The notes beneath the pieces are model-generated. The model had not been told where the DNA came from. It saw nothing but the letters and a program-made list of their open reading frames with translations, and searched no databases. Of a stretch of DNA of 64,000 nucleotides, positions 38,698-58,972 are shown piece after piece. The number at the start of each line of letters is the position of its first letter. Position 1 is the stretch's first letter. The DNA is from Patescibacteria group bacterium (GTDB taxonomy: Bacteria > Patescibacteriota > Minisyncoccia > UBA6257 > GWB1-50-10): assembly GCA_023474215.1 (NCBI GenBank), contig JAMCYI010000006.1, positions 1,452 to 65,451 on the forward strand. The letters run 5' to 3'. A program made the translations under genes and the position numbers.

Positions 38698-40473
38698 CTA
38701 AGATACTTCCTTCTGGTAGCATTCCTCGCAGTATACGATCTCGGGGCGGTCGGGGGCGTAGGTCGATTCGAACTCGTTCGGACAATGGCCGTCGCCATGC
38801 GCGTGGGACACGGTATTTTGATACACGCCGTTCTCAGATCTCGTTCCGGCGCATTGGCACTTCCGATGCCAAAGATCCAACGGATTCCTCTTCCGCAGCC
38901 GGTCGAAATGCCGGCAGTTGGGGCAGAGGCGCGGCAAGGCGACGCCCATTTTTTGATAGAGCGACAGCTCTTCGGCCGTCATACGGAAAGCCGTCGTGCA
39001 CTGCTCCGTGCACTTGCCGGCATGAGCGCACTCAATGATATTTTTCAGGATGTTTTCATCCGCCGCTTTTATGTCGTCCGGGATATCGGCGTTCTTCATC
39101 GTTACCTGATAGTTCCTCCCTTCGGGGTCCTTCCATGCGTATCCTTTCGCGAGCGCTTCTTCTTTCGCGAGCGGGAAATATTCGATCGCAACCGTTTCGT
39201 TGTACGCGAAGGGCGAGAGGTCCGGCGGGAAGAACTCGCCATAGCCGTATGTTCTCCCCTTCTGGTCCACATACGGCATATCCTTCATATGCTGAATAAG
39301 CTTCGGAACCAGAGCTTCGTACTCTTCCTTGGCATATTGCTTGTTCAAAATGCAGTAGTGTTTATCCTTCATACCGACGCATCCGAAGAGATTCGAAGAA
39401 CGTTCGCAATTAATGGAATGGTAAATATCATTTCCATTAATGACGATCCATGATCCCACAATGCGGCTTCCGGGATAAATGCTCATCGAATTGTAGACCA
39501 GCTCGCTCTTCAGACCCATGTGGCTCGACGAATGGCTGTCCTTCGCGCCCGCCGCAACGAGGAACATGTCGCGGCAATCCTCCGTGCCGTCGAAGACCTC
39601 GAACGACCGGTGCACGTTCTTCGAATTGAAGATGTTGTCGCCGGTGCAATTGAGCGAATTGATGATGCGGTACGGCCGCACGATGTTTTTCAGGCGCTCT
39701 TTCGCGAACCGCTCTTTCGTTTCCGTAAGCGTCCGGTAGCTTCCGAGATTCATTTCGCCGACGAGCTTCTTGTATTCTTCCGGCGTCTTCCGCTCGCCGA
39801 AATAGTAATATTTCTGATTCCGCAGGTTCACCGATCCGAAGCAATCCGTGCAGCCGTTCAAATCGAATCCGAATTTCACGTCGACACAGTTGTTGAGGAA
39901 TCCGCCGAACGCCGATCGGGAACAATTCTCCGAATCGGTCAGCTCGTAGGAGAGCTCGGCCCGCGTCACCCAGTAGAGCTCCATCGCATTCTTGCAGTGG
40001 AAATTGAACGTCGCATGGAGGCAATCCTCGTTGAAATCGCCGCCGAAAACCATATAGCAATTCTTGTTGCTCTCGGTGAAATTGCAATATTCACTGTTGA
40101 CGCCGTTCCAGTTGTTGAGCGAAGCGAATGGCACGTCGTGCATTAGTTCCTTGATCTGCTGGAACAAGGGCCGCGAAAAATCAACGTCGCGTCCGTATTC
40201 GGTCGGGTCCCACGAATCGCCGTGCCAGACGCTCTGTTCGTATACCTTGAAATCCTTTTCCGGAGAATAAATGGAAAGGATGTCCTTGCCGGTCTTGGAA
40301 TCCTTCCGCCGGTAGAGGTTCCGCTCGTTGCGGAACGCCAAGCGCTGCTGAAGCCGGCAGTCGGGACAAAGCGTCTCTGCCGGCACCTTCATCATCTCGA
40401 AAAAGCTGAAATCGTCCGCTTCGAGCGTGAAATCTTGCTTGCAGTTTTGGCATTGCCGAATTTCCGAAGTCAT
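38698..40473 (-). CDS. Cys-rich multi-zinc-ribbon paralog family, member 1 of 10 (591 aa). Family not recognised.
   Basis: N-terminal CQNC..F.LE..DF.F...KVP..T.CPDCR.QQR.AFRNER.LY. Duplicated internal module '..CFGC..LR.K.YCILNKQYAKEEYEALVPKL'. C-terminal LCPNCRH..RL..RNP..LWHRKCQC...CPNEFE..YAPDRPE.VYCEECY. Confidence 0.6.
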   Translation of the reverse strand: MTSEIRQCQNCKQDFTLEADDFSFFEMMKVPAETLCPDCRLQQRLAFRNERNLYRRKDSKTGKDILSIYSPEKDFKVYEQSVWHGDSWDPTEYGRDVDFSRPLFQQIKELMHDVPFASLNNWNGVNSEYCNFTESNKNCYMVFGGDFNEDCLHATFNFHCKNAMELYWVTRAELSYELTDSENCSRSAFGGFLNNCVDVKFGFDLNGCTDCFGSVNLRNQKYYYFGERKTPEEYKKLVGEMNLGSYRTLTETKERFAKERLKNIVRPYRIINSLNCTGDNIFNSKNVHRSFEVFDGTEDCRDMFLVAAGAKDSHSSSHMGLKSELVYNSMSIYPGSRIVGSWIVINGNDIYHSINCERSSNLFGCVGMKDKHYCILNKQYAKEEYEALVPKLIQHMKDMPYVDQKGRTYGYGEFFPPDLSPFAYNETVAIEYFPLAKEEALAKGYAWKDPEGRNYQVTMKNADIPDDIKAADENILKNIIECAHAGKCTEQCTTAFRMTAEELSLYQKMGVALPRLCPNCRHFDRLRKRNPLDLWHRKCQCAGTRSENGVYQNTVSHAHGDGHCPNEFESTYAPDRPEIVYCEECYQKEVS

Positions 40474-40514
40474 ACGTTTATTTTACACTAAATCACCACT
40501 CCGGCCTAAAAGGA

Positions 40515-40598
40515 GCGAGCCAGATGCCTCCGCGAAGGCTAAGACTTGGGCGTCGCCCCGGAGACAGCCTGAGCGGAGGTATCCGGCGAGCGACAAAG
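40515..40598 (-). terminator. third copy of the conserved-core hairpin element (arms cctccgc/gcggagg), reverse orientation, 3' of array member 2, with a 'gctcgctccttttagg' tail on the minus strand
   Basis: Core is an exact reverse complement of the 15053..15093 core. Alternative pairing partner 'gcggagg' lies within the last codons of member 2. Confidence 0.55.
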
Positions 40599-42341
40599 TT
40601 ACACTACCTCCGCGTTATAGCACTCTTCGCAGTAGACCGTTTCTGGCCGGTCGGGAGCGAACGCCGTCTCAAATTCGTTCGGACACTTTCCCGAATGGCC
40701 GTGATTGGACTTATCGCACATGCAAGAGCGACGCCAGAGCTTGAGGGGCGTTCCCTGCTTCAGGCGCTCGTAGTGCCGGCAGTTCGGACAGAGATGCGGA
40801 AGCGGCAAATCCATCCTCCTCAAGAACTGCAACTCCGGAGCGATGATCCTGAACGCGCCCGTGCATTGCTCGCCGCATTTTCCTCCGTGAGGGCATTCAA
40901 TGATCTGATCCAGAATATCGTCTTCTACACCCTTAATATCGTCAGGCAATTCGCTCGCTTTCATTGAAACCGCATAATCTTTCGCCGCCGCGTTTTCCCA
41001 CTGATATTTCTCTTCCGCCGCTCCTTCCGCCGTCAGCGGGAAATACTCCTCAGCGATCGTCTCGTTGTACGCGAAGGGCGAGATCTCGATCGGGAAGAAC
41101 TCTCCGTATTTATATATTCTCCCCTTCTCGTCTGCATACGGCATCTCGTCCATGTGTTTTTTGATCTTCGGGATCAGGGCCTCGTATTCCTCCTTGGAGT
41201 ACTGCTTGTTCAGGATGCAAAAATCCTTTTTCCGCACGCCGACGCACCCGAAAAGATTGGACCCTCCCCGGCAGTAATCCGAATACTCCACGTTCACGAT
41301 ATTCTCGTAGGTATTCGAGGAGAAGAAATTGCGGGAATCGTGATAAGCGACATTGACCCCCTCGTAACTCAGTTCCCCGCCGTCCCCCGCGCCGTGGAGG
41401 TCCATGCAGTCCTTGATCTTGAGTGCCTGCGTGCAATACCGCAGGTTTTCGCATTCATCGATGTTGAACGATTTGAAAATGTTTTTGGAATTGATGATAT
41501 GGTTGCCGCTCACGTTCACAACCTTATTCGTGAACGCAAACCTCTGGATGGAATTCTTCTTCAGTTCGGCATACTCGCCCTTGAGCGACTCGATGGTTTT
41601 CGCACTCCCCAATCCTATCCTTTTCAGCCTTTCTTCGTAATCCTCTTTGGTAAGCTGTTCGCCCCGGAATACATATGATTTGTTTCTCAAATTGGACCCC
41701 ATGAAACAGCTCTTGCAGCCCGCGCAGTTGTACAGAAAATAAGAATCCATGCAGTCGCGGCAATTCTGGAGGTAGGCGGAATGGACCGCATGGTTGGTAT
41801 CCATAGATTCATAGCAAAATTCCGAATCGGTAACGACATTCGAGTCAAAGACGTCGCGATCGTGGAATGCTTTATGGCTGTAAGCGATATTTTCGGAATA
41901 AAAAGTCGAAGGCGCCATATAGACATCTTTCGAAAGCCACGTGAAATTGGAGTAGGGCGCATTCTGATTTTGAAGGCTTTCCAAGGCCAGACGGGGAACC
42001 TCCGCTAAAAGCTCCCGGAATTGCTCGAAGAACGGCTTCGAGAAATCGTAGTCGCGGCCGTACGACATGACGTCCCATTTATCGGAAAACCAGCAGTCGT
42101 AGCAGTGAACTTTAAACGGCCGGTCTCCGGAGTACATCGAGATGATGGATTTGCCGCAAAGATCGCACGTATCCTTGTACAAACTGCGTTCGTTCCGGAA
42201 CGCCATTCGCCGCTGCCGCCGGCATTCCGGGCACCAGGTTGGCGGAGGAACTTCGATCTTCTCGTAGAATGCGAAATCCTCCGGCTCAACCGTGAACTCT
42301 TTTTTGCAATTCTGGCAGGTTCTGGTTTCGGCTTTGGTCAT
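40599..42341 (-). CDS. Cys-rich multi-zinc-ribbon paralog family, member 2 (580 aa)
   Basis: Same architecture. The N-terminus MTKAETRTCQNCKKEF and the 5' flank are shared with member 7. Confidence 0.6.
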   Translation of the reverse strand: MTKAETRTCQNCKKEFTVEPEDFAFYEKIEVPPPTWCPECRRQRRMAFRNERSLYKDTCDLCGKSIISMYSGDRPFKVHCYDCWFSDKWDVMSYGRDYDFSKPFFEQFRELLAEVPRLALESLQNQNAPYSNFTWLSKDVYMAPSTFYSENIAYSHKAFHDRDVFDSNVVTDSEFCYESMDTNHAVHSAYLQNCRDCMDSYFLYNCAGCKSCFMGSNLRNKSYVFRGEQLTKEDYEERLKRIGLGSAKTIESLKGEYAELKKNSIQRFAFTNKVVNVSGNHIINSKNIFKSFNIDECENLRYCTQALKIKDCMDLHGAGDGGELSYEGVNVAYHDSRNFFSSNTYENIVNVEYSDYCRGGSNLFGCVGVRKKDFCILNKQYSKEEYEALIPKIKKHMDEMPYADEKGRIYKYGEFFPIEISPFAYNETIAEEYFPLTAEGAAEEKYQWENAAAKDYAVSMKASELPDDIKGVEDDILDQIIECPHGGKCGEQCTGAFRIIAPELQFLRRMDLPLPHLCPNCRHYERLKQGTPLKLWRRSCMCDKSNHGHSGKCPNEFETAFAPDRPETVYCEECYNAEVV

Positions 42342-42390: not shown

Positions 42391-44133
42391 CTACACGACT
42401 TCGGCGTTGAAGCATTGTTCGCAATAGATGACCTCCTTCCTCTCGGGCGCGTAGCTCGTCTCGAACTCGTTCGGGCACGGTTTGCCTCCGTGGAAATGAG
42501 TTTTCAAATCACACATGCACGTACGGTGCCACAATTTCATGGGATTCCGCTGTTTCAAGCGTTCGTAGTGCCGGCAGTTCGGGCATAACCGAGGCAGGGA
42601 CAGATTCATCCGCTTATAGAATTGAAGTTCCTGGGGAGCAATCTTAAAGGCGCCGACACACTGATGGAGACATTTCCCCTCGTGCGCACACCCGATAACC
42701 TCGTTCACGATGGAGTCGGTGACGTCTTTGATATTGTCCGGAAGATCCCGAGAAAGAATGGTTGTTTTGTATTCCTTTATGTCTAGATCTTTCCACCGAT
42801 ATCCTCGGCTTATCGCTTCTTCCTTCATAAGGGGGAAATATTCCTGCGCGATGGTTTCGTTATAGGCGAAAGGAGAAATTTCCGGCGGAAAGAATTCACC
42901 GTAGCGGTATACTCTCCCCTTCTTGTCGATGTAAGGAACATCATTCATCTGTTTTATGATTTCCGGGATCAACTCCTCGTATTCTTCCTTCGCGTACTGC
43001 TTATTCAGGATGCAGTATTGCTTGCTTCGGAGACCGATACAGCCGAAACAATCATTACATCCGTGGCAGTTGTAACTGTAGAGAATATTCTTTCCGCCCC
43101 AAACGACAATGTCATTCACCAAACGATGAGCCTTCAGCCCAGAATCGATGATCTCGTAGCCCAATTCGAGGTCGCCCGGGCCATAACTGTCATAAATGTC
43201 ACTCATGACGACGCCGCCGTTCATGGTATATTTGCAATCTTTTGCGTTATCGAAAAGGTCGAAGCAAGACTTGCAGTTTTTTACGTTCGTCAAATTGTCG
43301 CCCGTCGAATCCGGCGCGTTTACCAAAAAAGCGAATTTGCGGATCGCTTTCAACTTAAGGGCATCAAAATCGCGCTTGAGCCGTTCGAGTTCTTGGTAAC
43401 TCCCCAGATTGAATTTTTTCAGTTCCCTTGCGTACCCCTCCGAAGAGTACTGCTTATTGAACATGCAATAACTCTTATTCCTCAAATTCGAACACCCGAA
43501 GCAGTTCGAGCATCCTTTGCAGTTATAGAGAAAATACGAATTGTTGCATGAATCGCAATTATCGGAAAAAAAAGTGCGGTACAATTTCATACCCGTGATG
43601 GTCTCGTAGCAAAGTTCGAGATAGGAGGACGACAAAACATCAAGGGAGTCCTTCGACATCCACGCTTTATTCGCATACATCACCCGCTCGTTCATCCACG
43701 AGCCGAACACCAGGTAGCAATCCTTGGAACGCCCGCTATGATTGGTGTATTCGCAGTTCTCGGACTGGGCATTGAAGATCGCCGGCATTGGCGCGCGTTC
43801 GAGAAGCAACCGGAATTGATCAAAGAACGTCTCCTTGAAATCATAGGGGCGGCCGGAACCAAGCGGGTCCCACTGATCGCTCCACCAAACATCACGATCA
43901 TACACCGTCACCTTGGCATCCGGCGAAAAGATAGAAATGACCCGTTTCCCCGTCAGGTCACAATTCCTCTGATAGAGCGAACGTTCATTCCGCCACGTCA
44001 TCTTGCGCATCAGGCGGCAATCCGGGCAGAAGGTCGGCGGCGGAACCTTGATCTTTTCATAGAAAGAAAGGTCCTCGGCTTCGATCGTGAACTCCCGGTG
44101 GCAATTCTGGCACGTCTTTTTCCTCGATTCCAT
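42391..44133 (-). CDS. Cys-rich multi-zinc-ribbon paralog family, member 3 (580 aa)
   Basis: Same architecture. Confidence 0.6.
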   Translation of the reverse strand: MESRKKTCQNCHREFTIEAEDLSFYEKIKVPPPTFCPDCRLMRKMTWRNERSLYQRNCDLTGKRVISIFSPDAKVTVYDRDVWWSDQWDPLGSGRPYDFKETFFDQFRLLLERAPMPAIFNAQSENCEYTNHSGRSKDCYLVFGSWMNERVMYANKAWMSKDSLDVLSSSYLELCYETITGMKLYRTFFSDNCDSCNNSYFLYNCKGCSNCFGCSNLRNKSYCMFNKQYSSEGYARELKKFNLGSYQELERLKRDFDALKLKAIRKFAFLVNAPDSTGDNLTNVKNCKSCFDLFDNAKDCKYTMNGGVVMSDIYDSYGPGDLELGYEIIDSGLKAHRLVNDIVVWGGKNILYSYNCHGCNDCFGCIGLRSKQYCILNKQYAKEEYEELIPEIIKQMNDVPYIDKKGRVYRYGEFFPPEISPFAYNETIAQEYFPLMKEEAISRGYRWKDLDIKEYKTTILSRDLPDNIKDVTDSIVNEVIGCAHEGKCLHQCVGAFKIAPQELQFYKRMNLSLPRLCPNCRHYERLKQRNPMKLWHRTCMCDLKTHFHGGKPCPNEFETSYAPERKEVIYCEQCFNAEVV

Positions 44134-44182: not shown

Positions 44183-45985
44183 TTATACTTTCTCCTTCTG
44201 GTAGCATTCGGCGCAATAAACAATATCGGGCCTCTCCGGTGCGAAGCTCGTCTCGAACTCATTCGAACAATGCCCATCGCCGTGTGCATGCTTCGAGAGA
44301 TTTGTATAGACGTAACTTGTTTCCTGCCCTGAGCCTGTCGAAGGGTCGCTTGCTGCTCCCCCACACTGGCATTTCCGATGCCACAGCTTGAACGGATTCC
44401 TTAATGCCAGGCGCTCGTAGTGCCGGCAGTTCGGACAGAGGCGCGGGAGGGGCAGGTTGAATTTGCGGTAGAAATCCAATTCTCCGGGAATGATTTTGAA
44501 GGCCTCGGTGCACTGATGGGTGCACTCACCCTTATGCGCACAGCCGATCACTTCTTTCAGAATATCGTCCGACACATCTTTGATGTGGTCGGGAAGATCT
44601 TCCGCTTCCACCGTGACGGCGTATTCCTTTTTTCCGAGATTCTTCCATACATACTTCTTCGAGAGTGCCTCTTCCTTTTTTAACGGGAAATATTCCTGCG
44701 CGAGGGTCTCGTTGTACGCGAAGGGTGATATTTCATGCGGGAAAAATTCGCCGTACGCGTATTTCCTTCCGGCTGCGTCCACGTACAGCGTTGCGTTCAT
44801 CTGTGCGATAATCTTCGGGACCAATGCTTCATATTCATTCTTGGAGTACTGTTTGTTCAAAATGCAGTATTCTCTGCTTCGCAAACCAACGCAGCCGAAG
44901 AGATGCGAGGAGGTGTGACAGCAATAGACGTATTGGACGTCATGGCAGCCGTGCGTATAAACGGTGAATTTGTAGTTCGACCCATTGATGCCTGAGTCGA
45001 CGCCTTCATACAGCAGTTCGCCGTTCGCCCCGAATCCGTACCCGTCGTATGAATCCTTGAGATCGATGGCGTGGATGGCGTATTTGGAATCCTCCGTTCC
45101 GCCGTAGCCGTCAAAACACTCTTTGCAGTTCTTGGCATCGCCGACATGGTCCCCCGTCGTACCAGCGCATCGGAGGAACGCCGCAAATTCCCGCGGAAAT
45201 TTGCGGTGGAATTCCTCGAACTCTTTCTTGAACGCTTCGAGATTCTGATAGCTTCCGAAATCGTATTTGGCCCGTTCTTTTTGGTATTCTTCTTTTGAGT
45301 ATTGCTCGTTGAAGATGCAGTATTGCTTGTTCCTCAAGTTGACGCATCCGAGCGAATTGTTCGTGTTGGTGCAATGCCGGAGGAACATCGAATCCATACT
45401 TTGTCCCGCATCGTACGAGAAAAACACCCGATTCAAGTTGTCAGAGAGCGTATCCTCATAGCAAAGCTCGGCCTTCAAATCATTGTAGAGATCCATCGAG
45501 TCCTTCCCTTCCACGATGCCACTCGAGAACGAAACGTTATCGCACTCATAGGAGGCATAGAGAAGATAGCAATCCTTCGAATCGGCATTGTGGTTCCCGT
45601 AATCGCTCCGTGTGACGTTGGTATTCGCGAGATTGGGAAGCGGCGCTTGGTGCAGGAGTTCTCTATACTGCTCAAAAAACGGACGCGAGAAATCATAGTC
45701 GCGGCCCGACTGGAGATTATCCCATTTGTCGCTCCACCAATAATCCCGATCGTAGACGACCATGTTGCTCTCAGGTGAGAACATCGTGAGAAATTCCTTT
45801 CCCGTCGCTGCACACTTCCCCTTGTAGAGCGTCCGCTCATTTCGCCACGTGAACCTCCTTTGCATCCGGCAATCCGGACAAAACGTGGGTGGTGGTACTT
45901 GAATCCTTTCATAGAAACTGAAATCCTCGGGTTCGATAACGAACTCTTTCTTGCAGTTTTGGCAGGTTTTCGATTCGGCAGCCAT
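44183..45985 (-). CDS. Cys-rich multi-zinc-ribbon paralog family, member 4 (600 aa)
   Basis: Same architecture. The C-terminus 'HAHGDGHCSNEFETSFAPERPDIVYCAECYQKEKV' and the 3' flank are shared with member 1. Confidence 0.6.
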   Translation of the reverse strand: MAAESKTCQNCKKEFVIEPEDFSFYERIQVPPPTFCPDCRMQRRFTWRNERTLYKGKCAATGKEFLTMFSPESNMVVYDRDYWWSDKWDNLQSGRDYDFSRPFFEQYRELLHQAPLPNLANTNVTRSDYGNHNADSKDCYLLYASYECDNVSFSSGIVEGKDSMDLYNDLKAELCYEDTLSDNLNRVFFSYDAGQSMDSMFLRHCTNTNNSLGCVNLRNKQYCIFNEQYSKEEYQKERAKYDFGSYQNLEAFKKEFEEFHRKFPREFAAFLRCAGTTGDHVGDAKNCKECFDGYGGTEDSKYAIHAIDLKDSYDGYGFGANGELLYEGVDSGINGSNYKFTVYTHGCHDVQYVYCCHTSSHLFGCVGLRSREYCILNKQYSKNEYEALVPKIIAQMNATLYVDAAGRKYAYGEFFPHEISPFAYNETLAQEYFPLKKEEALSKKYVWKNLGKKEYAVTVEAEDLPDHIKDVSDDILKEVIGCAHKGECTHQCTEAFKIIPGELDFYRKFNLPLPRLCPNCRHYERLALRNPFKLWHRKCQCGGAASDPSTGSGQETSYVYTNLSKHAHGDGHCSNEFETSFAPERPDIVYCAECYQKEKV

Positions 45986-46009: not shown

Positions 46010-47752
46010 TTATACTATCTCTTTCTGGTAGCACTCCTCACAGTAAACCCTCAAGTGCAATTCAGGGTCATAAGCCGTCTTGATATCTTTCCCGCAGTTG
46101 GAGCAATGAGATCCAAAAAGATCATACGGGCTTCTTTTTCTGAAGCGGTTCAGCAATCTGGTTCGGGGATGCAAGAGCGGCACCGGGATTGAATGTTTCC
46201 GGTAGAAGTCGAATTCCTGCTTGGTTATCTTGAAAGGTTTTCTCGAGACCTCACAAATAATGGTTGAATCCAGTATCGAATCAGCGACATTCTTTATGTT
46301 ATCCGGTATGTTATTAGCGGCCGGAGACGCTTCAGGCGCTTTCTCGTTCTTGAGGCGGGGTTTCATTGTGCTGTACCTATTTTCATCAAGAGGACACAGG
46401 GCTCCGGCATAACTGTCTTCATAAAAGAAGAACGCGTTACCAAGCGGCAAGAATTCGCCGTAACCACCTCCCTGAACCATGCTTGTTTTTATTTCATCAA
46501 CCAGTTTCCAATATTCGTCTTCGGAGTACTGTTTATTCAAAATACAGTATTTCTTTTTGCTGAGTCCGCTGCAACCAAAACAATACTGGCAATCGGAACA
46601 CTCGAATGAGTACTCGGTCTCCAGGCAGTTTTCCACGAAGTAAGAAGCTATTACCCTGTTGACGGATAAGGCCTCAATGACGTTATAGCATTCTTGCCCC
46701 GGCCCGAAGATCGTGACATCCATGCAATCCGTAGCGCCGATGAAGTCCTGCCCATAGCGGATGTTTTCGTTTTTATAAAAAGTTAAAAGGAATTTGGCGC
46801 TGGTACCCCAGAAGGACTGAACACAATTCTTGCAGTCTCTCAAGTGGTCACCCAAAGAGCCGGGGGAATTCTTTGCCCAGAGGGCCTTAAAAATGCCGTT
46901 GGTACGCAGGAATTCATCGAACTTCTTCTTGTACTCTTCGCGTATTTTTCTGCTCCCCAAATCAATCTCCGCCATCCTCTTTTCATAGTCCTCTTTCGAA
47001 AGCTGCTCGTTGAAGAAGCAGAATTTTTTATTCCTTAAGTTACTGCACCCGAAGCAGTTCTGGCAGTTATGGCAGTCAAAGAGGAAATACGAATTGATGC
47101 AGTCGCTGGAATTTTGAATATGCTGGGAATTGTGGATGCGGTCCGAGTCGATGATTTCGTAAGAATCCTGGACGTGGTCTGCAGACGACAAATCAAGCGA
47201 ATTCTGTGAATAAATCACCCAAAAGCCGTACGAAACGTCTTGAGCCATGCCGATGATCGAGGAAAGATAACAGTTTTTGACATCGAAACTCTGAACGGTG
47301 TATTCGCTGTTCACAATATCTTTGTTGTACCTTGCGAGAGCCCGGTGAGGCACCGCTCTTAAGAGATCAATGAACTGGCTCGAAAAATCGCGGTTCGCAT
47401 CATAATTTTGCCCGAAGGTGAGCGGATCCCACGCGTCCGACCACCAAAATTTATTGTCGTAGATCCGGTATTCGTTCTCCTCGGACATTTGAGACAATGC
47501 TTTTTCTTCCGGATGGGCAAAACAGGTCTTCTTGTAGAACTGGAAAATGCTTCCCGACATCGCGGTCCTTTTTATCATCCTGCACTTCGGACATTCTCTC
47601 GGCGGTAAAACGTTCAACTTGCGGCAGAAATCGATGTCCTCCGAAAAAATCTCAAAGCCTGAACCGCACATCGTGCATATGCGCGAGCCCGGTTTCGCTT
47701 CATTCAAAACCTTCCCAATCACCGCATCAAATTTTGGTGTTTTATCCTTCAT
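46010..47752 (-). CDS. Cys-rich multi-zinc-ribbon paralog family, member 5 (580 aa), the most divergent copy
   Basis: Retains the WWSDAWDP, '..CFGCS.LR.K.FCF.NEQLSKEDYE', 'KKYCILNKQYSEDEY' and terminal CxxC pairs, but has a different N-terminus. Confidence 0.55.
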   Translation of the reverse strand: MKDKTPKFDAVIGKVLNEAKPGSRICTMCGSGFEIFSEDIDFCRKLNVLPPRECPKCRMIKRTAMSGSIFQFYKKTCFAHPEEKALSQMSEENEYRIYDNKFWWSDAWDPLTFGQNYDANRDFSSQFIDLLRAVPHRALARYNKDIVNSEYTVQSFDVKNCYLSSIIGMAQDVSYGFWVIYSQNSLDLSSADHVQDSYEIIDSDRIHNSQHIQNSSDCINSYFLFDCHNCQNCFGCSNLRNKKFCFFNEQLSKEDYEKRMAEIDLGSRKIREEYKKKFDEFLRTNGIFKALWAKNSPGSLGDHLRDCKNCVQSFWGTSAKFLLTFYKNENIRYGQDFIGATDCMDVTIFGPGQECYNVIEALSVNRVIASYFVENCLETEYSFECSDCQYCFGCSGLSKKKYCILNKQYSEDEYWKLVDEIKTSMVQGGGYGEFLPLGNAFFFYEDSYAGALCPLDENRYSTMKPRLKNEKAPEASPAANNIPDNIKNVADSILDSTIICEVSRKPFKITKQEFDFYRKHSIPVPLLHPRTRLLNRFRKRSPYDLFGSHCSNCGKDIKTAYDPELHLRVYCEECYQKEIV

Positions 47753-48074
47753 CCAAAAGTTCCCTCGCTATCCGTTTCTCAAGTCGGTCCATCGCTTTTG
47801 GAAAAGAAGTCTCCATATTAACGTCGAACTTCTTCGAGAGAACGAGGATTGACCACAAGCAATCCATGAGTTCGTGTTCCAGTTTTTCGTTTAGTGCTTC
47901 TGCGGTTCGTACTCCTTCTCTCGCCATGACGAGTTTCATGAGATCCCCCACATCACCCACGAATCCTTCCATGATCTGGGCTTCTGTCCACTCCTTCCCG
48001 TATTTCTTCTTTTCGAGCTCCGCGTACTTTTCCCGTACCTCCACAGCACGGGAGATTAAGTCTTTAATTTCCAT
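47742..48074 (-). CDS. MazG-like nucleotide pyrophosphohydrolase (YpjD-type all-alpha NTP-PPase) embedded in the paralog array
   Basis: 110 aa. 'EGFVGDVGDLMKLV...EHELMDCLWSILVL' EExxE/D motifs. Overlaps the member-5 start by 11 nt. Confidence 0.65.
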   Translation of the reverse strand: MEIKDLISRAVEVREKYAELEKKKYGKEWTEAQIMEGFVGDVGDLMKLVMAREGVRTAEALNEKLEHELMDCLWSILVLSKKFDVNMETSFPKAMDRLEKRIARELLDEG

Positions 48075-51662: not shown

Positions 51663-52103
51663 TTATATCGTGGGGCTGACGACGATGATCCCGCCGAGGA
51701 TCGGATCTTCTTTTTCCTCGGACTTGAAAGAAACGATCTTCCAGTCCGGTCGCAAGCTCAAGTCGTCATATTCGACATCGCCGAGTTCGGCGTGCACCGA
51801 CGACCAGAACACCTTGCGAAGGATGTCCGCCTTGTCCATGAGGTTGCGGTAATCGCGGAAAACTTTTTCGCACTCTTTTTCCATGCCGTCGCCGCCGAAG
51901 AGGAACCGAGCGTGCTTTTGCTCGTGATCTTTCTTCATCTTACTTGCTTCTTTGGCAAGTTTGGCATGGAGAGAATAGATCCGCTTCAAGTTATCATTGA
52001 CCTCGATTACCACACGACCTTCCGGATAGGGACCTTCCGCTACCGGCTTCACGATCGTAGTACTGTCGATCTCCTTTTGGAGATCTTCGAGAAATGTGGC
52101 CAT
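51663..52103 (-). CDS. hypothetical protein (146 aa) within the array interruption
   Basis: ORF only. No recognised motif. Confidence 0.4.
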   Translation of the reverse strand: MATFLEDLQKEIDSTTIVKPVAEGPYPEGRVVIEVNDNLKRIYSLHAKLAKEASKMKKDHEQKHARFLFGGDGMEKECEKVFRDYRNLMDKADILRKVFWSSVHAELGDVEYDDLSLRPDWKIVSFKSEEKEDPILGGIIVVSPTI

Positions 52104-52169
52104 AAACCACCTCCTGTATTAGTGAGAAATATGTTTAGTTACAGGACTATACTATAAACTATTTTCATA

Positions 52170-53303
52170 TTATTTGTCAATCTCTGTTCGCCTCTTGCCG
52201 AAAAAGCGGACATAGAGATACATATTTGCGGCCATAACGGCGCCATACGCAAAAAACGGGACATCGAGGAGCGCTGCATCCATGAGGTATCCGGCGAGCC
52301 CCGTGCCGGCCGAGGAAGCCGCAAGACGCGCGACTTGGTTCACGCCGAGCGCGCGGCCCATTTCATCGCCATCCACCCGGCGCGTAAGTTCCGCCTGCTG
52401 GATCGGAAGCGCCATGATGCGGAGCGCCGGTCCAAAAACGTACACGAAAACGGCAAAAGGCAGGAAACGAATGATCGGGAAAGCGACGAAGAGAGCCGTT
52501 CCGATCCCCCTGCTCCACACCATGCTTTTTACGAATCCGAGATGTTTTTCGAGGAGCGGCGCTGCGAGAATGGCAACGGACCCTACAACACCCGAAAGAA
52601 AAGCGTATTCCGCCATTTGTGATTTTGGAATGTTATAAACCAAAAGAAAGAATGGGATGAGGAACGGAACGATGAGGCCTTGCGAAAATCCGTTCAAAAT
52701 GCCGGTCAAGGTGAATTTTCCGATGGTCGTTTTCGTCTTCAAAACGCGGAGCTTGCCCTTGGATTCCGTAACTTCGATGAATGGCAATGCAACGACACCC
52801 AATGCCGCGACAACGGTCGCAATGAGAAAAATATCTTGGACCGAGAAAACTTTCGCAAAGAGCGCGCCGATGGCCGCCACGATGCCCGAGAGGAAGGTAA
52901 AGAAGGAAAAGTATTTCGTCCGTTTTTCGCTCGGCGTGAGTTCCGTGATGACGGTGTTTTGGATCGGTTGGACTGCACCGCCAATGCCGCCGCCGGCCAA
53001 GGATCCGGTTGCGGAGTACCCCCCCACCATCGCTGCAAGGAATACCACCCACAAACTCGACGAAAAATATACCAAAGCGGAACTCACCGGCAGGAGCGCG
53101 CTTGCAATGAAAAGCGTCCCCCGCTTCCCCCACACGTCGGTCGTGATGCCGGCAAAGAAACTCAAGACCGCCGTCGCAATCGTCGCTGCGACGTAAATAA
53201 GGCCGATCATCCCGGCGCTTTGATGAAGGTCGACCAACACGTAGTACGGAAATGCGATATTGATCATCCCGGCCGCAATGCTCCGGGTGATCCTTGAAAC
53301 CAT
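52170..53303 (-). CDS. MFS transporter (start at internal MVSRITRS)
   Basis: About 12 TM helices and an MFS-type 'G..TDVWGKRG' loop motif. Confidence 0.7.
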   Translation of the reverse strand: MVSRITRSIAAGMINIAFPYYVLVDLHQSAGMIGLIYVAATIATAVLSFFAGITTDVWGKRGTLFIASALLPVSSALVYFSSSLWVVFLAAMVGGYSATGSLAGGGIGGAVQPIQNTVITELTPSEKRTKYFSFFTFLSGIVAAIGALFAKVFSVQDIFLIATVVAALGVVALPFIEVTESKGKLRVLKTKTTIGKFTLTGILNGFSQGLIVPFLIPFFLLVYNIPKSQMAEYAFLSGVVGSVAILAAPLLEKHLGFVKSMVWSRGIGTALFVAFPIIRFLPFAVFVYVFGPALRIMALPIQQAELTRRVDGDEMGRALGVNQVARLAASSAGTGLAGYLMDAALLDVPFFAYGAVMAANMYLYVRFFGKRRTEIDK

Positions 53304-53373
53304 AATGAGGTAAATGCCTTTTTTCTTGGGCCTTAGTTCAATTTCCACAGTAAGAACGATTATATCACACTGA

Positions 53374-53613
53374 ATGAAACCAGGTGGTATAATAAGAGTG
53401 ATGAAAAGCCGCGAGAATGCCATGTACGACACCACGAAACTCGCCAAATTCTTCGGCGTGACCGAACGAACCGTTCTCGAATGGTGCCGGAAGGGCAAAT
53501 TGCCGGCTTTCAAAATCGGCAGAAAGTGGAAAATCAGGGTCGTCGACCTCCAGAAAATGATCGACCGCAAAATACACACTTCCAAGGGAAATACTCCCCC
53601 ACACTTACTGTAA
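53374..53613 (+). CDS. excisionase/Xis-family helix-turn-helix DNA-binding protein (HTH_17-like)
   Basis: 'TTKLAKFFGVTERTVLEWCRKGKLPAFKIGRKWKI' matches the excisionase-type HTH pattern. It is the only + strand gene within the array. Confidence 0.55.
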   Translation: MKPGGIIRVMKSRENAMYDTTKLAKFFGVTERTVLEWCRKGKLPAFKIGRKWKIRVVDLQKMIDRKIHTSKGNTPPHLL

Positions 53614-53732
53614 TGATTTAATTACCGAAGGTCGGCGGCGGGACTTTAATCCGTTCGTAGAAACTAAAATCCTCCGGCTCGATAGCGAACTCCCGGTGGC
53701 AATTCTGGCATTGCCTCGTTTCAGAGTTCATG

Positions 53733-55442
53733 TCAGTTGAAGATATCCCTCAAGTAGCATTCCGTGCAGTAGACGACGGGGGCTTCATCCTCGCGGTAGT
53801 GCGTCCGGAGCTCTTTCCCGCACTTCGTGCATGTCCGTTCGATGAGAGACATCTGCTTGGCCCATTGCCGCACTTTTTCCTCAATACGACAGAAGGGACA
53901 TCGCCGCGGGAGGGGGAAGTTGTACTGCCGCAGGAACTGCAACTCATAGGGCGTGATTTTGTATCCCCGCGGGCACGCCGTGCACTTGATCACTTCTTTC
54001 AAAATATCATCCTTCGCATCCCGGATATGATCGGGGAGATCGGCGGCATCCATAGTCGATGCGTGTTCGGAGGGCGAGATCTCTACCCATGAAAGCCCTT
54101 CTCGCTGCGCTTCACCCTCTTCCAAGGGATGGAAGAGGTAGGCAAACGTGTCATTATAATCATGCGGCGAAAGCGTCGCCGGGAAGAACTCTCCGTAGCG
54201 GTACGTCCGCCCGGCGGGATCCACATACGGCGTCGAATTCATCTGCCCGATGATCTTTTCCCGCATCGCGTGGTATTCTTCCTTCGTATACGGCTTATTG
54301 AAGATGTAATACTGTTTGTTCCGAAGACCCGAGCATCCAAAAAGATAGGAACATCCCATGCAGCTTTTCGAATATTCCACGTGGTGGCTCGCGTGAATGT
54401 CCTGGCTGAATTTGACGTCGGCGACCTGGTTTCCCACCGTGATGCTGTCGTAGATGCGCTCCGCGCCCTCCCCCCAGTCGGTATAATCATAGCTGTCTTT
54501 CACGGTCGGCGCCTTGATGAGCATCATATACTTCGAATCTTCGCAGTAGCCGGAGTCGTAGCATTCCTTGCAGTTCTTGGAATAGAAAACGTAGCTCCCC
54601 GTGCAGTTGTCGTTGAACATATAGTCGTAGCAGGGATTCGGGATCGAATTTTTCCACACTTCCGCCGAACGCTTTTTCATTTCCTGGTACGTTTTGTAGG
54701 AACCGAGGTCGATCCCGTCCATCTTTTTCTCATACTCTTCCTTGGTCAACTGCTCGTTGAGGAACACGTACTTCTTATTGTGGACGTTCGCGGATCCGAA
54801 GCAATGCTCCGCATTCCGGGCATCCCGCAGGAAATAGGAGTCGAGCGAGCTGTGGACGTTCCCCCGCGAACCGTGGACGCGGTTGTTCCGGAAACCGTTC
54901 ATGCCGTCGTAGCATTCGGTACACTCCCAATAGACGCTGCAGTCGAGGAGCGCTTTGTCTTTCGTCAGATAAAAGCCGTACTCGCAGTCGTCGCTGTTGT
55001 CGGAATAAAAGATGAGATAGGAATTCTTCGAGCTCGCGCAATGGTTGGTGTAGGGAGAAAGTTCCTGCACGTCCTTCGTCACGGCGAGTCCCCGAATCGG
55101 AACTCGGTGGAAATGCTCGTTCAGTTGTTCGAAAAACGGCCGCGAGAAATCATAATCACGTGCATAGTCCTCGGTATTCCATCCATCACCCCACCAGCAG
55201 TCGGGGCAGTAAACCCGATAGGGCGAATTCGGCCGGTACATCGATATTTTCTCTTTCCCGCAAAGATCGCACTTCCGCTTATACAAACGGAAGCCCTTGA
55301 GCCACATGAGCCGCCTTTCGAGCCGGCATGCAGGACAGAAGGTCGGCGGCGGGACCTGGATCTTCTCGTAAAAGATGAAATCATCGGGTTCGATAATGAA
55401 TCCTTGATGACAATTCTGGCAAATTCTTGATTCGGAACTCAT
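53733..55442 (-). CDS. Cys-rich multi-zinc-ribbon paralog family, member 8 (start at MSSESRICQNC)
   Basis: Same architecture. ATGA overlap with member 9. Confidence 0.6.
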   Translation of the reverse strand: MSSESRICQNCHQGFIIEPDDFIFYEKIQVPPPTFCPACRLERRLMWLKGFRLYKRKCDLCGKEKISMYRPNSPYRVYCPDCWWGDGWNTEDYARDYDFSRPFFEQLNEHFHRVPIRGLAVTKDVQELSPYTNHCASSKNSYLIFYSDNSDDCEYGFYLTKDKALLDCSVYWECTECYDGMNGFRNNRVHGSRGNVHSSLDSYFLRDARNAEHCFGSANVHNKKYVFLNEQLTKEEYEKKMDGIDLGSYKTYQEMKKRSAEVWKNSIPNPCYDYMFNDNCTGSYVFYSKNCKECYDSGYCEDSKYMMLIKAPTVKDSYDYTDWGEGAERIYDSITVGNQVADVKFSQDIHASHHVEYSKSCMGCSYLFGCSGLRNKQYYIFNKPYTKEEYHAMREKIIGQMNSTPYVDPAGRTYRYGEFFPATLSPHDYNDTFAYLFHPLEEGEAQREGLSWVEISPSEHASTMDAADLPDHIRDAKDDILKEVIKCTACPRGYKITPYELQFLRQYNFPLPRRCPFCRIEEKVRQWAKQMSLIERTCTKCGKELRTHYREDEAPVVYCTECYLRDIFN

Positions 55443-57136
55443 ATGATTTCTTTCTGATAACATTCTTCACAATAAATGATTTCCTTGCTTTCCGGAGAAA
55501 AACTCGTCTCGAACTCGTTCGGGCACCGGCCGGAATGATCATGATCCGGTTTCTCGCACATGCAATTGCGGTGCCACGTTTTGTTCGGCCCGCGCGCCGC
55601 GAACCGCCGTTCGTGTCGGCAATCCGGGCACTCGCGCGGGAGCGAAATCTCCAGGTGTTTGTAAAACTCGAATTCGCTCGGGATGATGCGGAAATTTTTC
55701 TTGCATTTCACGCAAACGAAGATCTCCTTCGGCACGTCGATACTCCCGACGTCGCGAATCGAATCGGGTATTTTGTCCCATGGTATCGTTTCCTTGCCGT
55801 AGGTCCCCCGCGGATGGTCCTCCCACTTGAACCCCTGCCGCAACGCTTCTTCTTTCGTGAGAGGAAACTGGCCCTCTGCGGCCGTCTCGTTGTATCCGAA
55901 GGCACTGACGGATGCCGGGAAGAATTCTCCGTAGATCCCCTCCTCCCTCATTTTCGCGATGATCTCCTTCCGCAATGTTCTGTACTCTTCGGGCGAATAT
56001 TGCTTATTCAGGATGCAGTAATTCTGCTTTCGGAGGCCCGTGCATCCGAAGCAGTTCGTGCAGTTGAAGCAGTAGGAAGAATAGTCCATGAAACTCGATG
56101 ACCAGCAGACGGCGGTGGCAACATAATGCGAGACGTCGATGCCGGCATTGATCGAATTGTAGACCAGCTCCGCGCTTCTGCCCGCCGTGTCGGCATCGAC
56201 GCAATCTTTCGCGTTCCGCCAGATATGGACGCCGTATTTACTGTCCTCGGAATCGTAGCAGTGGAAGCATGACTTGCAATTCTTCGCGTCTTCGATGTAG
56301 TTCCCCGAAGAGCCGGGCGAGTTGTAGACCTGAGCGAACCGGCGCGGCTCCGTCATCGCGAAATCCTCGAATTTCTTTTTAAATTCCTCGAGACCGGTCC
56401 ACGTATCGAACCGCGCTTCTTCGAGGAACTTTTCGTAATCTTCTTTCGAGACCGGTTTGTTGAAAATGTGGTACTGCTTATTGAACAGATTGACGCAACC
56501 CACGCAATTCGAGCAGCCGCGGCAATCAAGGAGAAAATACCCGTCGTGCGAATCGTGGCATCCCTTGCTCCAAAACAAACGGTACGAGTTATAGCAGTCG
56601 TCGCTCTCGTACGAAAGTTCCGTCTTGCTCGCGAAGGACGTATCGACGCAATCCTTGCACTCTTGGATCCAGTAGCAGTGGGTACATCCCTCGTTGTTCG
56701 ACGACTCCACGAGCATATAACAATTCTTGTTGTCGGCCGATATGTTCACATACTCGGAGTTGACGCTCCGCTCGTGCATCAGACCGACCTTCGGCACTTT
56801 GTTCCAAAGTTCGGCGAACTGATCTAAGAACGGCTTTGCGAGGTCGTACTCAATACCGAGATCGCGACCATCCCAGCCGTCGGAAAACCAGCAATCGTGG
56901 CACCACACCGCGTACGGTTTATTCGGACTGTACATCGAGATGCCATCCTTGCCGCATTTGTCGCACTTCCGGGAATAGAATGAGCGTTCATTTCTGAACG
57001 CCAATCTTCTTTGTGCGCGGCACGCCGGGCACAGCCTAGGCGAAAGAACGTCCATCTTTTCGTAAAAACCAAAATCCTCCGGTTCGATGGCAAATTCCTC
57101 ATGGCAATTCTGACAAATTTTCTTCTCGGGAGACAT
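55439..57136 (-). CDS. Cys-rich multi-zinc-ribbon paralog family, member 9 (565 aa)
   Basis: Same architecture. Confidence 0.6.
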   Translation of the reverse strand: MSPEKKICQNCHEEFAIEPEDFGFYEKMDVLSPRLCPACRAQRRLAFRNERSFYSRKCDKCGKDGISMYSPNKPYAVWCHDCWFSDGWDGRDLGIEYDLAKPFLDQFAELWNKVPKVGLMHERSVNSEYVNISADNKNCYMLVESSNNEGCTHCYWIQECKDCVDTSFASKTELSYESDDCYNSYRLFWSKGCHDSHDGYFLLDCRGCSNCVGCVNLFNKQYHIFNKPVSKEDYEKFLEEARFDTWTGLEEFKKKFEDFAMTEPRRFAQVYNSPGSSGNYIEDAKNCKSCFHCYDSEDSKYGVHIWRNAKDCVDADTAGRSAELVYNSINAGIDVSHYVATAVCWSSSFMDYSSYCFNCTNCFGCTGLRKQNYCILNKQYSPEEYRTLRKEIIAKMREEGIYGEFFPASVSAFGYNETAAEGQFPLTKEEALRQGFKWEDHPRGTYGKETIPWDKIPDSIRDVGSIDVPKEIFVCVKCKKNFRIIPSEFEFYKHLEISLPRECPDCRHERRFAARGPNKTWHRNCMCEKPDHDHSGRCPNEFETSFSPESKEIIYCEECYQKEII

Positions 57137-57139
57137 GTA

Positions 57140-57262
57140 GAAATTTTACATCAAATATAGGGCTCTCGGCAGTCCTCCGGATTCCCGAGGACCAAAAAAA
57201 GCGAGCGGGGCGCCCATGGTGCCCCGCCCGCGATACCCCCGAGCTGCCTTCGGTGTTCGGGG
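57140..57262 (-). terminator. cluster of three GC hairpins between array members 10 and 9
   Basis: Inverted repeats gcggggc/gccccgc and cccccga/tcggggg seen directly. Confidence 0.4.
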
Positions 57263-57265
57263 GGG

Positions 57266-58972
57266 TTAGGCCGTCAGTTCACTGTAGCATTTCTTGCAAA
57301 GGATGTTTTGGGCATCGTGATTACTGATCGATGTCATAAATTCGGCCCCACACTTCGAACACGCTCTCTTTTCCATCTTCAAGTTATCGACCCACTGGTC
57401 GATCTTCTCATCGATCCTGCAGAAAGGACATTCACGGGGCAAGGGGTAGTTCATCTTCCGCAGGAACTCCAATTCGTCTCGTATCAACCGGAACCCCCTG
57501 CCACACTTGGCACAGCCGATAATTTCATTCAAAAGATCATCCGGCGCGTCTTTAATGTGATCCGGCAGATCGGCTGCTTTTTTCGTTACCTCGTATTCCT
57601 TTTTTTCGATATTTCGCCATCCGTATCCTTCGGCGCGAGCGGCATCTTCGGTCAGTGGAAAAAAATTCTGGGCCAGAGTTTCATTGTAGGAAAACGTGCT
57701 CATTTCGACGGGGAAGAACTCCCCGTATGTATACACCCTCCCCTTCTGGTCCGTATAGGGCATCTCGTCCATATGGCTCTTGATTTTCGGGATCAGAACT
57801 TCATATTCCTCTTTGGTGTATTGTTTGTTCAGAATACAATATTCTTTCTTCTTCAGGGAAACACATCCGAAAACGTGCGCTCCACCGTAAATCAGGAACG
57901 AATATTCGGAATCCATCAAATTCAAACCCGAGCCGTAGTTGAACTTCACCTCGCTCGCGTTTTCGCCCACGTTCGGCGAATCGTAGGAAAGCGTGAGATT
58001 GTTCCCCCAGCTCGTGATGTCGTAGGAATCTCTCGTCCCTGGAAGATACAGCATCGAAAGATATTTTGAATTCTCGGCGCCTAAAACTTCGTAGCATTCC
58101 TTGCAGTTCCGCGATTGGAAAACGTTGTTCCCCGTGCAATTCTCCGTGAATTCGTCGAAAACCGGTTTCGGCGGGAATTTTTTCCAGTGCTCTTCGGCGA
58201 GTTTTTGGATTTCCCGATACTCACGGTATGACCCCAAATCCCACTTTTTAATTTCTTTGAAATAATCTTCTTTCGCATACGGCTTATTGAAGATGTAATA
58301 CTTCTTGTTCCTCAAATTGATCGAGGCGAAGCAGTTCTGGCATCCCCAGCAATATTTGAGGAAATACGAATCAATCGACTCCGTCACCTGCCCCCGGAGA
58401 CCGGCACACCGGTTGCATCGGTAGGCGTGCATCGAGTCGTAGCAAAGCTCGGAATTCATGATGAGTGATGAGTCAAAGACCGATTTACTGTTCGTTGCAT
58501 AAAAACCGTAGGCGGAGTCTTCGTCGAAATCGGCATGGAAGAGCATATACACGTTTTTGTTATTACCGCTCAGGTGCGTGTAGGGTGACGTTTTGAGGGT
58601 CATGAAATCAGTCGAGAGCGCCGGAAGCGGCGCCTCGCTCAGAAACTCACGGAATTGTTCGAAAAACGGACGGGAGAAATCGTAATCGCGGCCGTATGCG
58701 AGCGGATCCCACCGGTCGCTGAACCAGCACGGAACACAGAAGACCCGATACGGAGCATCGGGGGCATAAACCGAAATGGTTTCTTTCCCGCAAAGGTCGC
58801 ACTTCCGCTTATAGAGATTCACGACGTTCATAAACGACAAGCGCCGCCTGAAGCGGCACTCGGGACAAAACGTCGGCGGAGGGACTTTTATCCTTTCATA
58901 AAAAGCGAGATCCTCAGGCTCAATGATAAATTCGCGGCGGCAGTTCTGGCAAACTTCTTTCCGGGAACTCAT
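57266..58972 (-). CDS. Cys-rich multi-zinc-ribbon paralog family, member 10 (568 aa), first gene of the array
   Basis: Same architecture. Confidence 0.6.
   Translation of the reverse strand: MSSRKEVCQNCRREFIIEPEDLAFYERIKVPPPTFCPECRFRRRLSFMNVVNLYKRKCDLCGKETISVYAPDAPYRVFCVPCWFSDRWDPLAYGRDYDFSRPFFEQFREFLSEAPLPALSTDFMTLKTSPYTHLSGNNKNVYMLFHADFDEDSAYGFYATNSKSVFDSSLIMNSELCYDSMHAYRCNRCAGLRGQVTESIDSYFLKYCWGCQNCFASINLRNKKYYIFNKPYAKEDYFKEIKKWDLGSYREYREIQKLAEEHWKKFPPKPVFDEFTENCTGNNVFQSRNCKECYEVLGAENSKYLSMLYLPGTRDSYDITSWGNNLTLSYDSPNVGENASEVKFNYGSGLNLMDSEYSFLIYGGAHVFGCVSLKKKEYCILNKQYTKEEYEVLIPKIKSHMDEMPYTDQKGRVYTYGEFFPVEMSTFSYNETLAQNFFPLTEDAARAEGYGWRNIEKKEYEVTKKAADLPDHIKDAPDDLLNEIIGCAKCGRGFRLIRDELEFLRKMNYPLPRECPFCRIDEKIDQWVDNLKMEKRACSKCGAEFMTSISNHDAQNILCKKCYSELTA

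Follow-up and report, generated by a model that had tools for sequence, protein, structure and literature searches.

An array of unnamed zinc-finger proteins beside a coupling-type ATPase operon differs between near-identical strains of Patescibacteria

The 64,000-nucleotide stretch analysed here (contig JAMCYI010000006.1 of the Patescibacteria group bacterium assembly GCA_023474215.1, positions 1,452 to 65,451; hereafter the window, numbered from its first letter) carries an array of long, cysteine-rich open reading frames (ORFs) between positions 38698 and 58972. The array raises the question what these proteins are, why diverged copies of them stand side by side and with which partner they work. 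Judged by its sequences, the family is a very large, unnamed and Patescibacteria-restricted one of predicted soluble zinc proteins of ~580 amino acids (aa). The array appears as a recombination hot spot, in which whole genes or gene middles are exchanged, inserted and deleted between near-identical strains. It follows an operon for a homologue of type IV coupling proteins (T4CP), which may be the partner of the family.

All ten ORFs of 563-600 aa that a first-pass annotation had placed on the minus strand were found in the ORF list within 38698-58972, with 27-38 cysteines per copy (4.6-6.7%). As that annotation had claimed, every copy translates without a frameshift or internal stop; a truncated eleventh copy was overlooked, which lies directly after copy 53733-55463 and holds the first 35 family residues followed by a stop. 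A family hidden Markov model (HMM) scores 561-979 bits on the ten copies and did not find a further full-length copy in the window. The copies do form the 20-kb array that had been described as tandem, but its span also holds genes outside the family, namely MazG-like, 146-aa, MFS and HTH_17 genes. In the ten-way alignment (A1) the pairwise amino acid identity is 30-53% with a median of 41%, and 53 columns are invariant, many of them cysteines. The mean column identity is 0.44-0.55 over the first ~120 and the last ~250 alignment columns, and 0.25-0.36 across most of the middle. A variable middle is therefore confirmed, although the word hypervariable was too strong, as conserved islands are present at alignment columns 241-270 and 391-480, one of them around the motif FGCxNLRNKxYC. 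In agreement with the annotation, neither a transmembrane (TM) helix nor a signal-peptide core was detected by hydropathy in any of the ten copies (19-residue windows, maximal Kyte-Doolittle mean 1.02). The pI of the copies is 5.5-7.6, that is neutral to acidic. The idea that the proteins mimic DNA was dropped, because the net charge per region is only mildly acidic.

Internal duplications were tested by profile-profile comparison of sub-alignments using HHalign. Residues 3-83, which hold a treble clef and a ribbon, are homologous to residues 477-575 (P 99.1%, E 6e-19), and the same relation holds between residues 119-241 and 270-392 (P 99.9%, E 6e-33). The predicted layout of the family is a treble clef plus CxxC-x17-CxxC ribbon, followed by half 1, half 2, a conserved alpha/beta region and the same finger pair again. 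Each half ends in FGCxGLRxKxYCI(L/F)NKQYSKEEYE and then a helix, the best-conserved segment (YGEFFPxExSPFxYNETxAxEYFPL) lies between the second half and the C-terminal fingers, and the C-terminus is a conserved zinc ribbon ending in ...VYCEECYxxEV(V). The four cysteines C8/C11/C36/C39 are invariant in the ten copies. Five copies keep an intact second finger (CxxC...YCxxC) and the other five have lost it, the third and fourth fingers occur in two variants each, and in seven copies the first pair of the ribbon is CxC plus a distant cysteine, not CxxC. That domains of the CxxC-x17-CxxC type bind zinc was demonstrated experimentally in small proteins of Methanosarcina mazei (PMC12704099). According to a structure model of copy 42391-44133 the two homologous halves probably form a beta-solenoid; a Foldseek search of PDB and BFVD with the model found no significant match other than zinc ribbons.

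In Pfam and NCBIfam no named family was found for the array proteins beyond weak matches to terminal zinc fingers, as the first-pass annotation had suspected. At the N-terminus, zf_Tbcl (PF13451) reaches 26.0 bits on copy 48093-49784 (gathering cut-off 24) and gives 13.5-18.3 bits or no match on the other five copies scanned. Near the C-terminus most finger matches to zf_Tbcl_2 (PF23477) and TIGR04272 lie just below the cut-offs; copy 46010-47752 scores 26.4 bits for zf_Tbcl_2 (cut-off 27) and 24.4 bits for TIGR04272 (cut-off 36), and the precomputed Pfam data list PF23477.2 for this copy and several relatives. Searches of PHROGs and PDB profiles with the family gave no assignment, a PADLOC scan of three copies gave no match at E<=0.01, and neither a BID domain nor any other effector, nuclease or toxin domain was recognised in the family with Pfam and NCBIfam. 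No description of the family or of DUF8128, which is introduced below, was found in the searchable literature, a search that does not cover most subscription journals.

The family is widely distributed. With sequences clustered at 50% identity, an exhaustive profile search returned 5,325 clusters with E<=1e-3 and 2,318 with E<=1e-30, and the lengths are almost all 550-600 aa. A word-indexed search gave at least ~8,000 matches, all unnamed, and the named sources among the matches listed are all Patescibacteria (Paceibacterota, Lipton-, Giovannoni-, Nomura-, Staskawicz-, Sung-, Brenner- and Kuenenbacteria). In a genome scan at least 581 family loci were found, 79 of which were kept for neighbourhood analysis; three of the 79 are labelled Gammaproteobacteria, Burkholderiales or Bacteroidales, which we take to be binning or labelling errors. 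Homologous arrays, which the annotation had proposed to look for, are common among these loci, with 8 copies in 22 kb (L009), 7 copies (L044) and 6 copies (L034 and L063). Therefore the ten-copy array is large but not unique.

The ATPase at 59733-61190 matches TrwB_AAD_bind with 30.9 bits (cut-off 20.5), TraG-D_C with 26.4 (22), T4SS-DNA_transf with 24.0 (20.1) and DUF87 with 32.8 (23.2), and carries the Walker A motif GKSGVGKS. It has the P-loop NTPase, the TrwB-type all-alpha and the TraG-D_C domains of a coupling protein, and the NCBIfam models TraD and CD1115 VirD4-like match it below their equivalog cut-offs. Its match to PHROG 5156, a fusion of DUF8128 and ATPase, has an E-value of 1.6e-55, and it is 27% identical to an 833-aa DUF87 protein of the Bacillus methanolicus plasmid pBM69, which is encoded beside a relaxase and conjugal-transfer genes and whose N-domain aligns with DUF8128. 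A phmmer search against PDB gave no meaningful match. By hydropathy the ATPase itself has no TM segment. The soluble domain of the DUF8128 protein encoded upstream of it and the N-terminal domain of fused long coupling ATPases are homologous, and the DUF8128 protein is likely the membrane anchor of a split T4CP. Because the ATPase and the DUF8128 protein match the fused proteins of pBM69 and PHROG 5156, the pair is read as a split coupling protein of the Gram-positive type. Across many metagenomes the orthologues of the ATPase share ~77-87% identity. A survey of 2,918 Patescibacteria genomes counted 5,713 VirD4-like homologues, of which only 148 lie near virB4; relaxases are almost absent, and the function of the VirD4-like proteins was left open by the authors, who did not exclude exaptation (PMC12102498).

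A second ATPase paralogue is encoded on the far side of the array. In many other genomes this paralogue carries a C-terminal CxxC-x17-CxxC finger of the family's own type (PF23477, E 3.6e-15), behind which come a conserved LGIEF motif and then a tail of low complexity (L044:13055-15514, L002:6024-8126 and nine other loci). In the copy of the window (30953-32689) the finger cysteines are lost and the flanking INxWSG and LGIEF motifs are kept.

The ATPase is also the most frequent neighbour of the family elsewhere. Among the 79 family loci a homologue of ATPase 59733-61190 is adjacent and on the same strand in 26, and two ATPase paralogues often bracket family copies, with gaps of 4-90 bp. In the reciprocal test we used 80 metagenome loci centred on orthologues of the ATPase (77-87% identity), and family genes are present in 61 of them. 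Downstream flank of at least 2.5 kb was available in 49 loci, and in 33 of them a family gene follows within 1.5 kb on the same strand; of the 49 loci with upstream flank of at least 2.5 kb, only 4 have a family gene within 1.5 kb upstream. In the same 80 loci the gene for the 179-aa protein lies directly upstream of the ATPase in 51, the DUF8128 gene upstream in 45, and the sigma-r4/HARE-HTH gene upstream of the operon in 31; the latter may encode a regulator or just be carried along by synteny. CutA1 comes after the ATPase in 25-30 of the 80 loci and is regarded as a syntenic passenger. Genes for DnaK and DnaJ were seen within 4 kb of family genes in 11 of the 79 loci each (e.g., L074:4810-6774 and L005:13285-14433), a recurrence that is probably conserved gene order.

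The array was compared with L160, a syntenic contig from GCA_027423705.1 that represents a sister strain. The flanking genes (M17, DUF6938, EamA and MFS) are 97-99% identical at the amino acid level, with synonymous divergence (dS) of 0.07-0.16. Three positions of L160 hold non-orthologous family members (35-53% identity). The L160 gene in the slot 53733..55463 is only 45% identical, so that this slot was replaced, and the genes in the slots 48093..49784 and 38698..40473 are only 35% and 50% identical, respectively, the latter with its breakpoint at the boundary with the M17 peptidase gene. Copy 46010-47752 is absent from L160 together with the neighbouring MazG-like gene, copy 49781..51550 is a mosaic (65-97% nt identity), and a partial counterpart of copy 55439-57136 is as conserved as the flanks. 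The breaks in sliding identity are sharp and coincide with gene boundaries: values of 94-100% hold up to 38600 and drop to 47-81% over the last copy, and on the other side values of 91-100% hold up to 55521, where copy 55439..57136 lies, and drop to 42-74%. A breakpoint inside the last copy (38698-40473), which a BLAST match had suggested, was rejected, as sliding identity places the break at the gene boundary.

Two further contigs from ENA, L164 and L165, are 99.0-99.9% identical to the window over the ATPase operon and two family copies; copy 57266..58972 itself has 97.8-99% nt identity in these strains. Both contain an extra family gene of 594 aa in the gap 57137-57265, flanked by AT-rich direct repeats (AATTTACAATTTTTAATTTTCAAT). 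This extra gene is 79% identical to the L160 gene beside M17, and therefore cassettes appear at different slots in different strains. In the window the same gap contains GC-rich hairpins and a T-run and is terminator-like. In an unrelated pair of loci, L113 and L114, 7.9 kb upstream are 99.96% identical and 1.9 kb downstream 99.0%. Their first family genes are identical in the first ~34 and the last ~45 residues, vs 23-63% over the ~490 residues of the middle. Four near-identical ATPase-centred pairs had enough flank for such a comparison, and one of the four differs in the array; because there are only four, the population evidence rests on few metagenomic strain pairs.

The view of the first-pass annotation that this is a diversifying locus is borne out in so far as strains with flanks of 97-100% identity differ by replacements, an insertion and the swap of a gene middle; fast substitution is not the cause. 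The variation is best described as recombination that imports old alleles, not as fast point substitution, and the conserved finger-coding ends, in which the breakpoints of the one mapped intragenic swap lie, may act as homology arms. From a handful of metagenomic strain pairs, the pattern reads as a signature of balancing or frequency-dependent selection on the repertoire.

The alleles are old also within the array. Every copy of the window is more similar to a protein from some other genome (43-68% identity) than to any of its fellow copies in the array (36-53%), and for copy 46010-47752 an orthologous subfamily exists elsewhere at 52-65% identity, after which identity drops to 42%. The paralogues are therefore older than the divergence of the lineages and do not stem from a recent local expansion, the term used by the annotation, which has to be given up since similar arrays are also common elsewhere. 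Four family "orthologues" in L160 have 83-92% aa identity and dS of 0.7-2.5, and their ratio of non-synonymous to synonymous divergence (dN/dS) is 0.05-0.09; among them are the counterparts of 44183..45985 (83% aa, dS 2.5, dN/dS 0.047), 42391..44133 (84% aa, dS 1.8, dN/dS 0.055) and 40599..42341 (92% aa, dS 0.71, dN/dS 0.066). The copies are thus read as ancient paralogous lineages, each kept by purifying selection, and the maintenance by selection which the annotation had deduced from intact reading frames is in line with these ratios.

What would such proteins do beside a coupling ATPase? The answer that we favour, tentatively and with less than even confidence, is that the family proteins are variable clients, i.e., translocated effectors, of the adjacent ATPase. 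Being devoid of signal peptides, they would be passed by the ATPase to the relaxase-less type IV secretion system (T4SS) of Patescibacteria and then reach host cells or be presented to them. The ATPase would recognise the conserved finger modules as its handle, and the variable solenoid would be the target-binding surface, which frequency-dependent selection would keep diverse. The annotation had predicted cytoplasmic products; the lack of a signal peptide stands, but the linkage to the ATPase opens an export route that is independent of signal peptides. It is a bolder and rather doubtful step to regard the family as the missing cargo of the T4SS, made up of zinc-finger/solenoid effectors that are recruited by an orphan split ATPase and reshuffled by cassette recombination. 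The breakpoints of the reshuffling would then fall in the conserved finger-coding ends, like in an antigenic-variation locus of an episymbiont.

Several points weigh against export by the ATPase. The C-terminus of the family is an acidic zinc ribbon, unlike the positively charged, disordered tails that are known as type IV signals, and the BID domain and/or positively charged unstructured tail by which type IV effectors are recognised is not seen in the family. Folded zinc proteins are awkward type IV substrates. The family is tied to the ATPase by gene linkage, and part of this linkage may be plain synteny among related genomes, because the short, ~80% conserved ATPase travels with CutA1 and the sigma/HARE-HTH gene. 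No virB4, channel or relaxase genes were found in the window by Pfam scans. A TM anchor of its own and an association with a T4SS channel or relaxase, which are typical of coupling proteins, are missing from ATPase 59733-61190, for which the anchor would be supplied by the split partner. The solenoid part of the structure model has a pLDDT of 58-79. Finally, a core function in the cytoplasm could likewise account for ancient paralogues that are constant in length and under strong purifying selection.

An unlikely alternative is a cytoplasmic immune or sensor repertoire, in which the solenoids recognise phage or foreign molecules and signal to, or are powered by, an ATPase of the HerA/FtsK/VirD4 superfamily. 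HerA works with effectors in known anti-phage systems, and the ATPases of the window match PADLOC mad8 weakly (E 1e-13 to 4e-15) and also HerA models. The lack of signal peptides and TM helices, the turnover of cassettes between strains with old allele classes that is typical of defence loci, and the presence of an excisionase-like HTH_17 ORF and a truncated copy within the array would all suit such a repertoire. However, the family itself has neither a PADLOC nor a PHROG match, and no nuclease, toxin or other effector domain was recognised in it. The ATPase, moreover, is ~80% conserved and very widespread, unlike patchy defence genes, and has membrane partners and conjugation-type relatives.

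We consider it similarly improbable that the family consists of ordinary proteins of the cytoplasm that bind nucleic acids or zinc (e.g., as regulators, RNA/DNA chaperones or zinc buffers) and that their adjacency to the ATPase is inherited gene order. Each protein has four finger modules of types usually assumed to bind nucleic acids, the architecture is constant and under strong purifying selection, and the recurrence of CutA1, DnaK and DnaJ nearby indicates that synteny contributes to the neighbourhood. But the linkage is kept across diverse loci centred on the family, where ATPase and family genes share a strand at gaps of 4-90 bp and the ATPase comes in three different architectures, and a finger domain is common to the ATPase paralogue and the family. 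In addition, swaps between strains of 99-100% identity are unusual for housekeeping genes.

A role as accessories of DNA transfer is quite unlikely. The fingers, which stand at both protein ends, would here bind DNA and pilot or coat it for the ATPase, as a substitute of the relaxase or in the manner of VirE2, during export or uptake. Coupling-protein genes usually lie beside relaxase genes, as those of the plasmid relatives of the ATPase do, and relaxases are nearly absent in Patescibacteria (PMC12102498). Yet no relaxase, HUH, nuclease or OB-fold signal was found in the family by library, PDB-profile and structure-model searches, the proteins are neutral to acidic, and ten diverged paralogues with strain-specific turnover are hard to explain in this way. 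An assembly artefact or a decaying pseudogene cluster, which the metagenome-assembled source and the one truncated copy might suggest and of which the annotation had raised the first, is effectively refuted, because the copies are only 60-75% identical in DNA and lack long near-identical repeats, which excludes a collapsed repeat, because all ten copies are full length with the low dN/dS given above, and because the same arrangement was recovered in independent assemblies.

The features of the locus are compiled in Table 1. The window is part of a Patescibacteria chromosome, with enolase, PPDK, Asp/Asn-tRNA synthetase, MnmA and M17 peptidase genes, and is 100% identical to contig DAIBZB010000001.1 of GCA_027423645.1; tRNA genes were not found in it. 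The start of copy 46010-47752 is ambiguous, since the ORF includes the N-terminal finger and the NCBI product has 492 aa (P0270). The MazG-like gene was not found in the 80 ATPase-centred loci. The 146-aa gene is 86% conserved in L160 and has a 144-aa counterpart at the same position in L169, beside an MFS gene; a strong hairpin with a 12-bp stem lies at 51615-51642, between this gene and the next family copy. The 5' end of the MFS ORF is probably spuriously extended, with the real start near 53303. The truncated copy 53627-53731, which abuts the HTH_17/MFS insert, resembles a scar left by an insertion or a deletion. A 62-aa ORF with one predicted TM helix (58975-59163, minus strand), which lies between CutA1 and the first copy of the array, is called as a gene in four independent assemblies (L162 and L164-L166). 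Within the array 14 sigma-70 promoter-like sites were counted vs 19 expected from shuffles, and 28 terminator-like sites vs 24 from shuffles; neither scan did better than shuffles, and no operon map is claimed.

Table 1. Features of the array and its surroundings, in window coordinates.
Feature	Position	Strand	Length	Basis and remarks
Second coupling-ATPase paralogue	30953..32689	-	578 aa	far side of array; no finger cysteines
Family copy, last in array	38698..40473	-	591 aa	ORF, family HMM
Family copy	40599..42341	-	580 aa	ORF, family HMM
Family copy	42391..44133	-	580 aa	query for structure model and database searches
Family copy	44183..45985	-	600 aa	ORF, family HMM
Family copy, most divergent	46010..47752	-	580 aa as ORF	30-36% identity to other copies; ZnF3 cysteines lost
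MazG-like gene	47742..48074	-	110 aa	between two family copies; 11-nt overlap with next copy
Family copy	48093..49784	-	563 aa	37 Cys; ORF, family HMM
Family copy	49781..51550	-	589 aa	4-nt overlap with next copy; family HMM
Non-family insert within array	51663..53613	.		146-aa gene, MFS and HTH_17 ORF; abuts truncated copy
146-aa gene	51663-52103	-	146 aa	without match in any library searched
MFS transporter	52170-~53303	-	377 aa as called by NCBI	
Excisionase-type HTH_17 (PF12728) ORF	53422-53613	+	63 aa	overlaps over-extended MFS 5' end
Truncated eleventh copy	53627..53731	-		encodes MNSETRQCQNCHREFAIEPEDFSFYERIKVPPPTF then stop; tblastn, translation, repeat family D3
Family copy	53733..55463	-	576 aa	ORF, family HMM
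Family copy	55439..57136	-	565 aa	38 Cys; 25-nt overlap with next copy; family HMM
Family copy, first after ATPase operon	57266..58972	-	568 aa	HMM 716 bits; ZnF2 present, ZnF3 and ZnF4 of simple CxxC type (alignment)
CutA1 gene	59213..59518	-		between ATPase and array
Soluble VirD4/TraD/HerA-superfamily ATPase, T4CP homologue	59733..61190	-	485 aa	Pfam, NCBIfam, PHROG
Protein with one N-terminal TM helix	61194..61733	-	179 aa	4 nt upstream of ATPase gene; hydropathy
DUF8128 (PF26449) protein with two N-terminal TM helices	61738..63165	-	475 aa	4-nt gap to 179-aa gene
Sigma-70 region 4 + HARE-HTH protein	63204-63962, runs past window	-	338 aa in source genome	

Patescibacteria account for much of bacterial diversity and are presumed to live on other cells, and to our knowledge the molecules by which they act on their hosts are almost unknown. 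A survey of 2025 found about two VirD4-like coupling ATPases per Patescibacteria genome, almost never near type IV genes (PMC12102498). The present analysis ties one conserved orphan ATPase operon to one of the largest unnamed protein families of Patescibacteria, and strains whose chromosomes are otherwise near-identical differ most in the ATPase-linked family genes. The family thus offers concrete candidates for type IV substrates, as the client reading would have it, or for another variable repertoire that depends on the ATPase. As a new multi-domain family it merits a Pfam entry, and strains in CPR populations can be tracked with the array as a natural marker locus.

In Bartonella, the paralogous effector genes bepA-G form an array behind virD4. 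The locus described here resembles the VirB/VirD4-bepA-G arrangement in that a coupling gene is followed by a same-strand tandem array of diverged paralogues, which like the Beps have no signal peptide and join a conserved module to a variable part. Unlike the Beps, the family has zinc fingers at both ends and neither a BID domain nor a positively charged tail; the coupling protein is apparently split and of the Gram-positive type, and the T4SS channel genes would be located elsewhere. In type VIIb systems the FtsK-like ATPase EssC is followed by strain-variable arrays of substrates and toxins. Common to both are a membrane-associated ATPase of the FtsK/HerA superfamily, strain-variable signal-less proteins behind it and recombination at conserved ends, whereas WXG100/LXG helical domains, immunity genes and EssA/B/EsaA are absent here and the ATPase is VirD4/TraD-like, not EssC.

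With the DUF87 proteins of the pLS20/pBM69 type and with TraD/VirD4/TrwB the ATPase shares TrwB_AAD_bind, TraG-D_C and T4SS-DNA_transf, and a DUF8128-like N-domain is found in both settings. In difference to the coupling proteins of Gram-positive conjugation it is split, chromosomal and ~80% conserved, has no relaxase neighbour and does not lie near virB4. The terminal modules of the family match zf_Tbcl (PF13451) and zf_Tbcl_2/TIGR04272 weakly, mostly below the cut-offs, but these are domains of ~40 residues found mostly in small proteins, which cover less than 25% of a family protein and not the putative solenoid core. For the core, curli CsgA, the UspA1/YadA heads, the left-handed beta-helix acyltransferases and insect antifreeze proteins serve as beta-solenoid comparators. 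The parts, i.e., treble-clef fingers, solenoid, coupling ATPase and cassette recombination, are each known, and their combination and the link to an orphan ATPase are new.

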